A stretch of 54,855 bases of DNA, from the NCBI GenBank assembly GCA_013813875.1, contig JACCQZ010000065.1, positions 1-54,855 of the forward strand. The letters are read 5' to 3'. The translations under genes were made by a program, and so were the position numbers. Positions 5,909-10,473 of the stretch are shown here, piece after piece. Every line of letters begins with the position of its first letter. The stretch's first letter is position 1. The DNA comes from Gemmatimonadales bacterium (GTDB lineage: Bacteria; Gemmatimonadota; Gemmatimonadetes; Gemmatimonadales; GWC2-71-9). Below the pieces are notes generated by a model. That model worked only from the letters and a program-made list of their open reading frames with translations, was not told the DNA's origin and did no database searches.

Positions 5909-6798
5909 CCCTCGAAGGGCTCGCCGAGAATGAGCTCGAGGAGTCGGGCGAGGTCGTCATTGGAGTAGTAGCTGAGGGTGAGGAACCCTCGCCCCCGGCG
6001 CCGGGTCGTTACTCTCACGTCGGTTCCGAGGCGCTTGCGGAGCGCCTCCTCGACTCGGCGTACGTCGGTGGTGGCCGGGGCGCCGGGTGCGTTCCGCCGC
6101 TCCAGGGTACCCCTGCGCTTTTTCCCTGCCGGCACATCACCACGCACCCGGGACTCCATTTCCCGCACCGTCCAACCCTGCTCCACCGCCTCGCGGGCCA
6201 ACTGCAGCAGACGCTCCGGCTCGTCCACCCCGAGCAGAGCGCGCGCGTGGCCTTCGGAGAGCTTCCCTTCGTGGACCATCGCGCGCACATCGGCGGGCAG
6301 TTGGAGAAGGCGAAGGAGGTTAGCCACCGTTGAGCGGTTGCGGCCGACCACTCTCGCGATTTCGTTCTGGGCCAGCTTGAACTCTTGGCCGAGCCGCTGA
6401 TATCCCGCGGCTTCGTCTATGGGAGAGAGATCGTGCCGCTGCAGGTTCTCGATGAGCGCCAGCGTGAGCAGCGTCCGATCGTCAACGTCCTTGATGACCG
6501 CCGGAATCTTGGCCCACCCCAGCCGCTCGGCCGCGCGGTACCGGCGCTCACCGGCGATGAGCTCCCAGGTTCCATTTCGAGGCCGGACCACGACTGGCTG
6601 CAGCAGCCCCGACGCTTCCATGGAGGCGGTGAGCTCGGTGAGGGCGCCTTCATCCATGTGAGTGCGCGGCTGGTAGGGGTTCATGCGCACGCTGGCCATC
6701 GGGAGCTCGCGCAACGTGCCCGAGGCCTCCGCCTGCTGCCGCGACACCGGGCCCAAGAGCGCCTCCAGTCCACGGCCCAGCCTCTTGGTCTCGCTCAT
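5905..6798 (-). CDS. parB: Chromosome partitioning protein ParB (Spo0J)
   Basis: Starts MSETKRLGRGLEALLGP... with IENLQRHDLSPIDEA and an HTH region. ATG at 6798 overlaps the parA stop by 4 nt. The longer ORF to 7233 overlaps parA and was rejected. Confidence 0.9.
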   Translation of the reverse strand: MSETKRLGRGLEALLGPVSRQQAEASGTLRELPMASVRMNPYQPRTHMDEGALTELTASMEASGLLQPVVVRPRNGTWELIAGERRYRAAERLGWAKIPAVIKDVDDRTLLTLALIENLQRHDLSPIDEAAGYQRLGQEFKLAQNEIARVVGRNRSTVANLLRLLQLPADVRAMVHEGKLSEGHARALLGVDEPERLLQLAREAVEQGWTVREMESRVRGDVPAGKKRRGTLERRNAPGAPATTDVRRVEEALRKRLGTDVRVTTRRRGRGFLTLSYYSNDDLARLLELILGEPFEG

Positions 6799-7610
6799 GT
6801 GGCCACCTCCGGCAGCGGCTCCGGTAACTCGCTCACCACCGGTGACTCCACCCTGCGCATCAATTCCTGCGCGACCGCGAGATAACTCTTGGCGCCGATT
6901 GACTGCACATCGTATAAAAGGATGGGCTTGCCGAAACTGGGCGCCTCCGCGAGGCGGACGTTCCGAGGAATTGGAGTCAGGAACACCTTGGCGCCGAAGT
7001 ATTCCTTGGCGTCCTCCGCCACCTGACGGCAGAGATTGAGCCGCGAATCGTACATGGTGAGCAGTACGCCGCTGATGGTGAGACCTGGGTTGAAGTTCTG
7101 CTGGACCAGGCGGACGGTGTTCAGCAACTGTGAGATGCCCTCGAGTCCATAGTACTCGCACTGAATCGGAATGAGGACCGCATTGGCCGAGGCGAGCACG
7201 TTGAGGGTGAGCAGCCCGAGCGAGGGAGGACAATCCACCACGATATAGTCGTAGTCGTCGTTGAGCGGCTCGATCACCTGGCGCAGCACCGCCTCGCGCT
7301 CGCTGCGCTCCACCAGTTGGAGCTCCGCGCCAACCAGGTCCTGAGTAGCCGGCAGCACCTGTAGATGAGGGAGCCCCGGGACCGGAAGGATTGCTTCTCG
7401 AGCCGCGCGGCCGTCCACCAGAGCGTCGTACAGGGAGATCTCCAGATCGTGCTTGGTGATTCCCAGTCCACTGGTGGCATTGCCTTGCGGATCGGCGTCC
7501 AGGAGTAAAGTTCGGCGCTCGGCGATGGCGAGCGACGCCGCGAGGTTGACCGCCGTGGTCGTTTTCCCGACCCCGCCCTTCTGATTAGCGATGGCTATGA
7601 TATGGGCCAT
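6795..7610 (-). CDS. parA: Chromosome partitioning ATPase ParA (Soj)
   Basis: 271 aa. MAHIIAIANQKGGVGKTTTAVNLAASLA is the deviant Walker A motif. Confidence 0.9.
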   Translation of the reverse strand: MAHIIAIANQKGGVGKTTTAVNLAASLAIAERRTLLLDADPQGNATSGLGITKHDLEISLYDALVDGRAAREAILPVPGLPHLQVLPATQDLVGAELQLVERSEREAVLRQVIEPLNDDYDYIVVDCPPSLGLLTLNVLASANAVLIPIQCEYYGLEGISQLLNTVRLVQQNFNPGLTISGVLLTMYDSRLNLCRQVAEDAKEYFGAKVFLTPIPRNVRLAEAPSFGKPILLYDVQSIGAKSYLAVAQELMRRVESPVVSELPEPLPEVAT

Positions 7611-7745
7611 GAAAGCCTATTACAGGTGTAAGCTCTTTCGGGACAGCGACTTAGGAATCAGTTGACAACTTGTACTGAATGCGCGCAAGAAGCTATGGCT
7701 GGGTTTTCCTCAATATACGTAATCCGCTGATCTTGCGGTACCATG

Positions 7746-7761
7746 AGTTTCACGTGAAAAC
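7746..7761. promoter_or_regulatory. parS-like ParB binding site (AGTTTCACGTGAAAAC)
   Basis: Perfect 12-bp palindrome TTTCACGTGAAA at 7748-7759. It matches 13/16 positions of the TGTTTCACGTGAAACA consensus and lies 136 bp upstream of the parA start. Confidence 0.7.
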
Positions 7762-7879
7762 GCTGCACACTCAAGGTTTTGGGGCCGGTAGGGCTTGTGG
7801 ATAGGTCGTGCAGTGTGCTGTGTAAGGCTCCTGAAGCGTAAAGTACGAAGGGGCGTCGCTGGGATTAGGCAGAGAGTCG

Positions 7880-8530
7880 CTGCTGCGTAGAGTCGCAAGG
7901 AGAGGAGCCAAGCAAGCTGACGCTACAGAACGCAGGGCCGCAGGTGGACATTGGAGGTGGCCAGCGGACCGGAGCGAGGGCTGGGGGATGTAGTGAGTGT
8001 CCGAGGATAGGACCCGAGAGCACGCCGTGTTGGAAGCGGCGAGGCGAAGCGAGGTCGGCGAGTGCGAGCGAAGTCGGGGAGGCCGAAGGCAGGCGTCGAT
8101 CGGTTTTCAGGCGTACAATCGGGTTATAAGGAATGGCGGTACGTTGAGGTGGCGGACAAGTAGCCTTGTTGCGAGGGAGTTGAAGAAGGGGCGCGCATCA
8201 ACCGGGAGTGGAGACGGCGGGTGCAGCGAACGCGAACTGGACAAGGGCCCGAGGAGCAACAGGAGTGGAAACCGGTGGCGTACTAGCGGATGAAGAACGG
8301 GGCAGCAAGTGGAAGTGGAGGGAAAAAAGGCGGTGCAGCGGCGACGGGCGCTGTCGGGGTGGTGCATGGGGAGAAAGGTGGCAGGGTCCGGTGAAGGAAG
8401 CATGGAAAGCGTCAGAGGGAACGGAGTGCTGTGGAAGGTAGGCTGGACGACGTACACTCGAGATGAGGTTGGCGGCTTGGCGGAGGGGCTGAACGGCGGA
8501 GGGGAGTGTGACGGCGCGGGGTGTAGCGCA
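7880..8530 (+). other. Strongly purine-skewed (G much greater than C on the + strand) non-coding stretch
   Basis: Hand counts: 8041-8100 gives G30 A13 C12 T5, and 8281-8340 gives G26 A20 C8 T6. Only short overlapping ORFs occur, and they use rare codons (AGG, CGA, AGT, ATA, GGA). The boundaries are approximate. Confidence 0.7.
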
Positions 8531-8574
8531 GGTTTATGGGTTCGCTAGGCGAGATTCCGCTCCGGCAATCCCGC

Positions 8575-10473
8575 TCACACGGGGAATGTTTCACGTGAAA
8601 CTTCAGGCATGGAATCCCGCCTGCGCAGCTTCAACACCTCTATCACTAGACTCTGCAGGTCGCTCGGAGATACGCCGGGAACCCTTCGGGCCTGGCCGAG
8701 CGACAGGGGCCGAACCCTACTCAGCTTTTCCCGTGCTTCAAACGAAAGGGTCTGCAGCTGGGGATACTCCAGCTCGGCTGGCAAGCAGAAGTCGTCCAGC
8801 TGACTCAGCCGATCCGCGGCTCGTTGCTCCCTGGCAAGATATCCAGCGTACTTGAGTTCGATGTCGGCCCATTGGCTCTCCTCGTCTGTCACCTCGATGC
8901 CGGCGGCTGCCAGGAGCCCGCGAAGCGAGACACCGGGCCTCCTCGCTAATTCTGCCACCCGGGGCCGGTGACGGACGGAACAGGTTTCCGAATCCGGCAG
9001 AAGCGGAGCAACTGCTTCAGCACTGAGAGTCGCGCTTTCCGCAATCGCCGCAATCTCCTTCTCTCTCTCGAGTCGAGCGGCCGCAGCCCGGAGCTCTTGC
9101 TCCGTCAGGAGTCCGAGGCGCTCGGCCAGGGGAAGCAGCCGGCGCAGCGCGTTATCCTGGCGCAGCAGCAGTCGGTATTCTGAACGAGATGTGAAAAGTC
9201 GGTACGGTTCGTCTACGCCACGGGAGACCAAGTCATCCACCAGTACCCCCAGAAAGGCGATGCTGCGGGGAACGATGACCGGCTCCGAACCCAGGGCCAA
9301 TGCGGCCGCGTTGAGCCCCGCGATGACGCCCTGGCCGGCAGCCTCTTCGTACCCCGTCGTCCCATTGACCTGGCCCGCGAGGAAGAGGCCGGGTACATCC
9401 TTCACTTCAAGGCTTGGATGTAGCTGGGTGGGCGGGAAGTAGTCATACTCGATGGCATAACCCGCCCGAGTCATCCTTACACTGGCGAGGCCAGGCAAGG
9501 TCCGGAGGAACTCCAGCTGTACCGCGGCCGGGAGCGAGGTGGACAGCCCGTTGACGTAGAGCTCCGCCGTATCCAGCCCTTCCGGTTCGAGAAAGACCTG
9601 ATGACGCTCCGCGCTGGGGAACCGCACGATCTTGTCTTCGATCGATGGGCAGTAACGTGGCCCCAGACTGGCAATTGCACCACCATAGAGGGATGACTGG
9701 TGCAAGTGTGACGCGATGATGTCGTGAAGCTGTGAATCGGTGTAGGTGAGGTAACAAGGAAGCTGGGCAGGGTGGTGGGGCCGTTCGTGAAATGAGAACC
9801 AGTACTCGGCTTGATCTCCATCCTGGCGGGCAAGCCGGGTCAGGTCCACTGATCGTCCGTCTATCCGGGGCGGGGTTCCGGTCTTGAAGCGTTCTACTTT
9901 AAGTCCAAGTCTCTCAATAACTTGTGCTATCTCAACCGCTGGACTCTCCCCCGCTCTGCCCGCCGGAATCGGAGCGTCCAGGCCGACGTGCATTTTACCC
10001 CGGAGAAAGGTCCCCGCCGTCAACACCACTGCGGGGGCCAGGAACCGGCGGCCGTCCTGGGTAAGCACTCCCTCCACCCTGTGACCGTGGAACAGCAGAC
10101 CCGACACCGTTCCCTGGGCAAAATCGAGCTTCGGCTCCCGCTCGAGCAACGTGCGCACCGCTCGCCGGTAAAGCCCCCGGTCGCACTGGGCGCGGGGCGA
10201 CCAGACGGCGGGACCTTTTGACCGGTTGAGCATGCGGAACTGAATACGGGCGAGATCGGTTGCCCGCCCCATGATGCCGCCGAGCGCATCCACCTCGCGC
10301 ACCACGGTACCCTTGGCGATCCCACCGATCGCGGGATTGCACGACATCTGCCCGATGGTCTCGAGGTTTTGGGTCAGGAGGAGGGTGCGCGCACCACGGT
10401 GGCCCGCCAGGGTGGCCGCCTCAGCGCCGGCGTGTCCACCGCCGATCACGATCACGTCGTAGCGATCCGTCAT
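8575..10473 (-). CDS. mnmG: tRNA uridine 5-carboxymethylaminomethyl modification enzyme MnmG (GidA)
   Basis: 632 aa. YDVIVIGGGHAGAEAA (FAD fold), SCNPAIGG, GQVNGTTGYEEAAGQG. Confidence 0.95.
   Translation of the reverse strand: MTDRYDVIVIGGGHAGAEAATLAGHRGARTLLLTQNLETIGQMSCNPAIGGIAKGTVVREVDALGGIMGRATDLARIQFRMLNRSKGPAVWSPRAQCDRGLYRRAVRTLLEREPKLDFAQGTVSGLLFHGHRVEGVLTQDGRRFLAPAVVLTAGTFLRGKMHVGLDAPIPAGRAGESPAVEIAQVIERLGLKVERFKTGTPPRIDGRSVDLTRLARQDGDQAEYWFSFHERPHHPAQLPCYLTYTDSQLHDIIASHLHQSSLYGGAIASLGPRYCPSIEDKIVRFPSAERHQVFLEPEGLDTAELYVNGLSTSLPAAVQLEFLRTLPGLASVRMTRAGYAIEYDYFPPTQLHPSLEVKDVPGLFLAGQVNGTTGYEEAAGQGVIAGLNAAALALGSEPVIVPRSIAFLGVLVDDLVSRGVDEPYRLFTSRSEYRLLLRQDNALRRLLPLAERLGLLTEQELRAAAARLEREKEIAAIAESATLSAEAVAPLLPDSETCSVRHRPRVAELARRPGVSLRGLLAAAGIEVTDEESQWADIELKYAGYLAREQRAADRLSQLDDFCLPAELEYPQLQTLSFEAREKLSRVRPLSLGQARRVPGVSPSDLQSLVIEVLKLRRRDSMPEVSRETFPV
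8587..8602. promoter_or_regulatory. parS site (TGTTTCACGTGAAACT), inside the 3' end of mnmG
   Basis: Matches 15/16 positions of the TGTTTCACGTGAAACA consensus. The 14-bp perfect palindrome at 8588-8601 encodes ..VSRETF.. of MnmG. Confidence 0.8.

Follow-up and report, generated by a model that had tools for sequence, protein, structure and literature searches.

A strand-skewed mnmG-parA spacer between two predicted parS sites in a Gemmatimonadales bacterium: a candidate oversized Rho-utilisation region

Results and Discussion

The intergenic region between mnmG and parA in the Gemmatimonadales assembly GCA_013813875.1 contains a block in which G and C are distributed between the strands more unevenly than anywhere else in the genome, and we confirmed that this compositional anomaly is real. 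As judged from predicted parS sites, the block lies inside the only centromere detected in the assembly, a context missing from the first-pass annotation of this DNA. Analysis of its sequence suggests that it is most readily understood as an extreme form of an established signal type, the Rho-utilisation (rut) region. Our leading reading, which we put forward tentatively and at somewhat less than an even chance, is that the block may be an oversized Rho-utilisation or termination zone insulating the centromere and the parA promoter from mnmG. The function of the block, if any, is best explained as residing in its strand composition, not in its sequence.

The window, i.e., the whole 54,855-nt stretch analyzed here, is contig C219 of a 3.3-Mb metagenome-assembled genome (MAG; 363 contigs, 86% complete), and its MnmG is nearest to those of Gemmatimonadota/Gemmatimonadales MAGs. 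Genome-wide gene statistics were obtained with gene calls that reproduced the public annotation of L124.

Extent and composition of the block

The core of the compositional block spans positions 7800 to 8553 (about 750 bp, 63% GC). On the plus strand, it contains G335 C137 A173 T109, corresponding to a GC skew of +0.42 and 67% purine; the interval 7880-8530 contains G293 C121 A152 T85. The minus strand, which is the sense strand of both mnmG and parA, is C-rich, G-poor and unstructured, and RNA transcribed in this sense would contain about 44% C and 18% G. Cumulative G-C places the edges of the block at about 7700/7800 and at 8553. The GC skew varies from +0.36 to +0.52 in 200-nt windows between 7800 and 8600 and is close to zero in the flanking genes, which bears out the G strand asymmetry, absent from the neighboring genes, claimed by the first-pass annotation; its base counts for 8041-8100 (G30 A13 C12 T5) and 8281-8340 (G26 A20 C8 T6) were exact. 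Fifteen successive 50-nt bins have skews of +0.2 to +0.59. The skew sets in about 25-50 nt past the mnmG stop codon and ends short of the proximal parS site (parS-1) and the parA promoter described below.

Comparison with the whole assembly (61,899 windows of 600 bp, sd 0.060) demonstrated that the GC skew peaks at the block at +0.44, about 7 sd, and that windows of the block hold ranks 1-12; the top unrelated window reaches 0.27. The maximum skew in any coding region of the genome is likewise 0.27 per 600 bp, and hence captured ordinary DNA would not account for the block. The whole 964-bp gap between mnmG and parA has a GC skew of +0.35, and the others among the 40 longest listed intergenic regions of at least 400 bp lie within about +/-0.11. 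These genome-wide skew surveys ruled out the block as a general trait of intergenic regions or gene 3' flanks in this genome.

The recurring motifs noticed earlier were recovered in part: GGAGTGGA and CGGAGGGG each occur twice, and GCGAG occurs four times, not five. The sole repeat found by TRF in the block is a degenerate tandem array of 2.9 copies of a 19-nt unit (GAAGTCGGCGAGGCGAAGC; 8033-8088, 56 nt, plus strand). No excess of repeated k-mers (k = 6-12) was observed in the block relative to dinucleotide-preserving shuffles (z from -0.2 to -1.4), and neither spectral nor lag periodicity was found in it; thus, the motifs appear to be chance products of composition. Because the array is short and degenerate, k-mer z-scores do not exceed zero and periodicity is lacking, the block was rejected as a tandem repeat, a minisatellite or periodic DNA.

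Anatomy of the mnmG-parA locus

Both genes that border the 964-bp gap are encoded on the minus strand. The upstream gene, mnmG (gidA; 8575-10473), encodes a 632-aa protein with a Pfam GIDA match (2.1e-155) and C-terminal domains, and ends with the TGA stop codon at 8577-8575. The downstream gene, parA (6795-7610; assigned by Pfam and the L124 gene table), is the first gene of a parA-parB-M23 peptidase-bactofilin unit.

Two predicted parS sites flank the block. The first, parS-2 (TGTTTCACGTGAAACT; 8587-8602), is located within the last mnmG codons and differs by one mismatch from the 16-nt consensus TGTTTCACGTGAAACA, being the sole site in the assembly with at most two mismatches to this 16-mer; genomes of the same genus have an equivalent parS at the 3' end of mnmG. 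The second, parS-1 (AGTTTCACGTGAAAAC; 7746-7761), has three mismatches in the window and two in other strains. Both predicted sites approximate the 16-nt palindrome TGTTNCACGTGAAACA and lie near parAB, and their position is conserved in relatives. They are the only parS-like sites detected in the assembly (86% complete), and the block occupies the 825-bp spacer between them. Paired parS sites upstream of parA were observed in most relatives' loci examined.

The parS-1 site of the window contains an extra A at 7757 relative to the sequence AGTTTCACGTGAAACG found in three further assemblies of the species. The site is polymorphic in the species: GTTTCACGTGAAAAC occurs in the window and in one additional contig, and three contigs that lack one A restore the palindrome GTTTCACGTGAAAC. 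The variant with the additional A could be either a real variant or a homopolymer error.

A predicted -10 hexamer of the parA promoter, TATATT (7712-7717, minus strand), was identified by its conservation in the genus some 100 nt before the start of parA and about 30 nt from parS-1, on its parA side. The extended motif (C)TATATT(G/C) is found at the same distance from parA in all nine same-genus loci, and TTGCAC precedes it by 16 nt in four; this conservation suggests that parA has its own promoter. In three same-genus loci, including the window, parS replaces the -35 region of the parA promoter, an arrangement that suggests autoregulation of this promoter by ParB. In the direction of transcription, the locus is thus ordered as follows: mnmG, parS-2, the stop codon, a C-rich tract of about 750 nt, parS-1, the parA promoter, a leader of about 100 nt, and parA-parB-M23-bactofilin.

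This position raises the question of whether the block functions, at the level of DNA, as a component of the centromere. As an asymmetric spacer, it might shape the ParB-parS complex or SMC loading, for instance by adopting non-B structures, G-quadruplexes or an R-loop, or by impeding transcription or replication in one orientation. The block takes up exactly the space between parS-1 and parS-2, the sole parS-like sites of the assembly, and two parS sites upstream of parA are conserved across Gemmatimonadota. However, relatives manage with spacers of 25-100 bp; the longest pure purine tract in the block is only 14 nt, with no helical phasing; and the block contains no canonical G-quadruplex motif (G3+N1-7 x4), the nearest approach being two motifs with loops of up to 12 nt, so that a canonical G-quadruplex array was rejected. 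We are not aware of any report that ParB sliding or loading requires a particular composition, and a search of the literature brought up nothing specific. We consider such a component very improbable.

Variation within the species and among relatives

The block is unchanged in an independent assembly, GCA_030155825.1, on a contig encoding an identical ParA. In another assembly of the same species, GCA_051004595.1, a 215-nt segment (8265-8479) is missing, a length that is not a multiple of three, and the remainder of the block differs by two SNPs; the strains are 99% identical. A Logan contig, which carries the block in part, and another NCBI contig of the species both break inside the mnmG-parA gap. 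The identical copy in an independent NCBI assembly, the copy with the deletion and the partial copy in the Logan contig together ruled out an assembly artefact. A search for further strains via identical MnmG or ParB yielded none that were new.

No sequence similar to the block was found by BLAST in 18 same-genus and 12 same-order genomes, nor was any found in 80 metagenome loci with related ParA. By these searches, the block appears to be species-wide and confined to one species. Within the genus, the mnmG-parA gap varies from 265 to 964 bp and the distance between parS sites from 35 to 841 bp; this distance is about 25 bp in Gemmatimonadota that are less closely related. In a sister species (L025, G008:C268), the corresponding position upstream of parA holds a microsatellite, (GGTCTTT)n, with 17 or more units; its G>C polarity matches that of the block, and the contig ends in this array (its last ~120 nt). 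The variable gap and spacing within the genus, together with this array, point to the site between the parS pair as an indel hotspot.

The first-pass annotation had proposed a check of conservation in relatives, and the outcome was divided: the sequence is not conserved, whereas the polarity of the skew at the mnmG-parA gap is, in a weaker form. The C>G skew of the gap in the sense direction is positive in 84% of the 51 loci in which mnmG immediately precedes parA and in 36 of the 38 loci with at least 67% ParA identity. For the 16 closest loci, which are phylogenetically non-independent, the mean gap skew is +0.136, compared with +0.009 (sd 0.086; Mann-Whitney p about 1e-6) for a baseline drawn from tandem intergenic regions of 200-800 bp of this genome alone. 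One of the relatives (G004) has a 200-nt patch with 61-68% pyrimidine directly after mnmG.

These observations bear on the main rival explanation, by which the block is a functionless lineage-specific spacer in the indel hotspot between the parS sites and owes its composition to its origin, such as a decayed G-rich simple repeat or a captured foreign fragment, rather than to selection. It accommodates readily the absence of similar sequences from the 18 same-genus genomes and 80 metagenome loci, the range of parS spacing in the genus and its shortness in distant relatives, the 215-nt indel between nearly identical strains, the microsatellite of the same polarity in the sister species, the two same-species assemblies that break within the gap and the one surviving degenerate 19-nt array. 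It accounts less well for (i) the lack of k-mer excess and cryptic periodicity, which means that a repeat origin would have left no trace, (ii) a skew higher than in any other coding or non-coding region of the genome, (iii) the same polarity at the gap in relatives with unrelated sequences, and (iv) the failure to find a plasmid or phage source. Moreover, we know of no neutral process that yields 750 nt of aperiodic sequence with a skew of 0.42. A functionless spacer therefore appears rather unlikely, though it must be taken seriously.

Coding, RNA and origin candidates

The first-pass annotation had described the block as non-coding and not explained by any annotated feature, and our searches agree: no Rfam match, no Pfam-type coding signal and no similarity to plasmids or phages were found. 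Three-nucleotide periodicity, clear in mnmG and parA, is absent from the block in every frame, and GC content by codon position is flat. The minus-strand frames are long and open, with one stop in 256 codons; since the composition of the block is poor in stop codons (about 0.015 expected per codon, by arithmetic), such frames are to be expected. Six-frame translations of the gap had no similarity to the gaps of relatives in tblastn searches.

In other phyla, rsmG is often located between mnmG and parA, which, together with the open minus-strand frames, raised the possibility of a decayed or unrecognised gene, either an rsmG relic or a Pro/Ser-rich minus-strand protein. However, no GidB signal (PF02527) was detected in the six frames of the gap at E <= 10, and GidB exceeds the family cut-off in only one of the 31 genomes of the order, so that the absence of rsmG must be old; a relic of recent rsmG loss was rejected on this ground. 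The single GidB-positive MAG is 6% contaminated. The 16S m7G527 methyltransferase thus seems, from these profile searches, to have been lost order-wide or replaced by a protein too divergent to be detected. The missing periodicity, the lack of a GidB relic and of tblastn similarity, and a strain indel that does not preserve the reading frame led us to reject a coding gene or pseudogene.

A replication origin was considered along with the decayed gene, as the block has one DnaA-box-like 9-mer (TGTGGATAG, one mismatch; 7796-7804, plus strand). This box is probably incidental, being one of 112 such sites genome-wide with no cluster here, and oriC was rejected: there is no AT-rich unwinding element and no switch in gene orientation, and dnaA and better box clusters are located on other contigs. 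A decayed gene or an origin as the explanation of the block can thus be given hardly any weight. The only three-box clusters of DnaA-box-like sites in the assembly, at G000:C357:4071-4118 and C283:19976-20058, are candidate oriC regions. A single 674-aa open frame at G000:C198:6640-8196 has two Bac_DnaA (PF00308) matches about 600 nt apart (end to start) and may represent two genes joined by fusion or a DnaA whose AAA+ module has been duplicated or split. No copy of the block was found elsewhere in the genome, in plasmids or in phages, and an origin from a mobile element, plasmid or phage was rejected.

Transcription of the opposite strand would produce a G/A-rich non-coding RNA, diverging from parA and running antisense to the 3' end of mnmG, that might serve as a protein or RNA sponge or form an R-loop. 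Purine- and G-rich RNA forms very stable RNA:DNA hybrids, the block contains 22 G-runs of three or more as well as some 30 GGA triplets, and the plus strand is free of competing annotated features. Nevertheless, no Rfam family matches the block at E <= 1; its fold energy does not differ from that of shuffled sequences on either strand (z-scores of -0.52 for minus and +0.47 for plus), so that there is no excess of RNA structure; and no sigma-70-like promoter or terminator was found on either strand. CsrA (PF02599) was not found in the assembly (86% complete), and the number of GGA triplets equals the expectation from base composition (by arithmetic). The block is also not conserved beyond the species, and one strain has lost 215 nt of it. 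The suggestion of the first-pass annotation that a G/A-rich plus-strand RNA is produced is thus unsupported, and we regard it as improbable. Two narrower candidates were rejected on the same data: a known RNA family or structured RNA, given the Rfam and fold results, and a sponge RNA of the CsrB/RsmZ type, given the lack of CsrA in the 86% complete assembly and of any GGA excess.

Rho-utilisation features of the sense strand

Rho-dependent termination has been linked to C>G bubbles, defined as stretches in which %C is at least %G throughout in a 78-nt window (Nadiras et al. 2018, PMC6144790). In that study, every tested template with a bubble longer than 78 bp or larger than 700 %xbp was terminated Rho-dependently in vitro by the E. 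coli Rho. The mnmG-sense strand of the window has one uninterrupted bubble at 7710-8616, covering about 830 window positions. Its area of 20,104 %xbp is the largest of the 89,646 bubbles in the genome; the second largest measures 11,115, and the other large bubbles lie mostly in coding DNA. The block bubble contains 117 start positions of the pattern [(YC)N9-13]4 and 78 for n = 6, and YC dimers make up a fraction of 0.24 of the sense strand, compared with 0.06 of the antisense strand. The sense RNA is predicted to fold with -0.15 to -0.24 kcal/mol/nt against a GC-matched genome background of -0.41 +/- 0.04, and is less structured than all 300 random genomic segments, the least stable of which has -0.28 kcal/mol/nt; the minimum free energy of 715 nt of the block RNA is -168.8 kcal/mol. 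The earlier suggestion that read-through RNA from mnmG would have the composition of a rut region is therefore borne out at the level of sequence for every feature considered, and to an extreme degree.

The genome encodes a full-length Rho with the Rho_N, Rho_RNA_bind and ATPase domains. Three Rho_RNA_bind matches were found in the assembly (G000:C109, C273 and C275); two of them, located on different contigs, score identically, which points to strain duplication within the MAG, and the third, divergent match may be a paralogue or contamination. Canonical intrinsic terminators, consisting of a GC hairpin and a U-tract, are rare in this genome: they follow 25 of 1008 genes (~2.5%), compared with 12 in the antisense control. 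The mnmG-parA gap contains no intrinsic terminator.

The preferred reading of the block as an oversized Rho zone rests on the bubble, the weak RNA structure, the encoded Rho, the rarity of intrinsic terminators and their absence from the gap. It draws further on the onset of the skew shortly past the mnmG stop, on a skew that no coding region of the genome attains and on the C>G polarity shared by relatives whose gap sequences differ. By this mechanism, mnmG transcripts would run past parS-2 and the stop codon into the block, where about 750 nt of untranslated, C-rich, YC-rich and nearly structureless RNA would provide a long track for Rho loading and translocation. Rho would then release RNA polymerase ahead of parS-1 and the parA promoter. 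Termination upstream of parA is plausible, since parA appears to have its own promoter conserved in the genus. Hybrids of pyrimidine-rich RNA with a purine-rich DNA template are weak, and transcription in the opposite direction yields very stable G-rich hybrids; the former property would favor release in the mnmG direction. The presumed selective benefit would be insulation of the ParB-parS complex, and of the autonomous promoter of the parAB-M23-bactofilin unit, from mnmG read-through.

Several observations stand against the Rho zone. The block is about 10x longer than a rut site needs to be, and the 215 nt missing in one strain indicate that much of this length is dispensable. There is no genome-wide C>G signal 3' of stop codons (mean +0.008, n = 905), and thus Rho terminators visible in composition are not the norm here. 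Bubbles above the published thresholds are common in the genome (90th percentile of area, 996), which makes the bubble criterion non-specific. The sequence is restricted to one species. In addition, where the gap of a relative measures 80-120 bp, mnmG and parA are probably transcribed together, and this speaks against insulation being generally required.

Comparison with known systems

The block resembles Rho-dependent terminators and rut sites (PMC6144790; RhoTermPredict, PMC6407284) in that the RNA is C-rich, G-poor, YC-rich and poorly structured, and also in that it is untranslated, starts just after a stop codon, keeps its composition without keeping its sequence and occurs in a genome that encodes Rho. 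It differs in size, with a bubble of ~830 window positions and ~20,000 %xbp where 80-100 nt suffice, and in being an extreme outlier of its genome instead of one site of many. The published rules for rut sites derive from E. coli and Salmonella, and the block was compared with them at the level of sequence. The Rho-sensitive leaders or insulators of enterobacteria (e.g., those of rho, corA and mgtA) also contain a long untranslated C-rich tract, through which Rho controls the access of polymerase to the next gene; these leaders, however, are 5' elements with regulatory structures and conserved sequence, whereas the block is 3'/intergenic and has no detectable structure or conservation.

In its other aspect, the locus resembles the chromosomal parS clusters beside parAB (TGTTNCACGTGAAACA; ParB-CTP sliding clamps), with two near-consensus parS sites upstream of parA, one of them near the parA promoter, an arrangement shared with many bacteria. 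In contrast to the clusters of related families, where the spacer is about 25 bp, the spacer here has grown to 825 bp. To our knowledge, no strand-skewed spacer has been described as part of a parS cluster. A more speculative proposal is that the spacer is a polar working part of the centromere: transcription entering from one side would die fast, owing to pyrimidine RNA and Rho, and transcription from the other would form stable G-rich R-loops, which would fix the boundaries or the orientation of the ParB-CTP clamp domain and of SMC loading. We regard it as a long shot; if true, the polar spacer would be a new composition-defined class of cis element in bacterial chromosome segregation.

Implications

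If the block is a functionless spacer, it marks the region between the parS sites as a hotspot in which sequence is rapidly gained and lost, and as a cause of MAG contig breaks in the genus. Should the block prove to be a track for Rho, it would provide an unusually clear case of the transcriptional insulation of a bacterial centromere by composition only, and the mnmG-parA junction would keep its C>G polarity despite a complete turnover of sequence. Termination signals have not been characterised in Gemmatimonadota, and canonical hairpin-U terminators are rare. The conserved pattern of C>G polarity could help to locate Rho-dependent boundaries in high-GC genomes.
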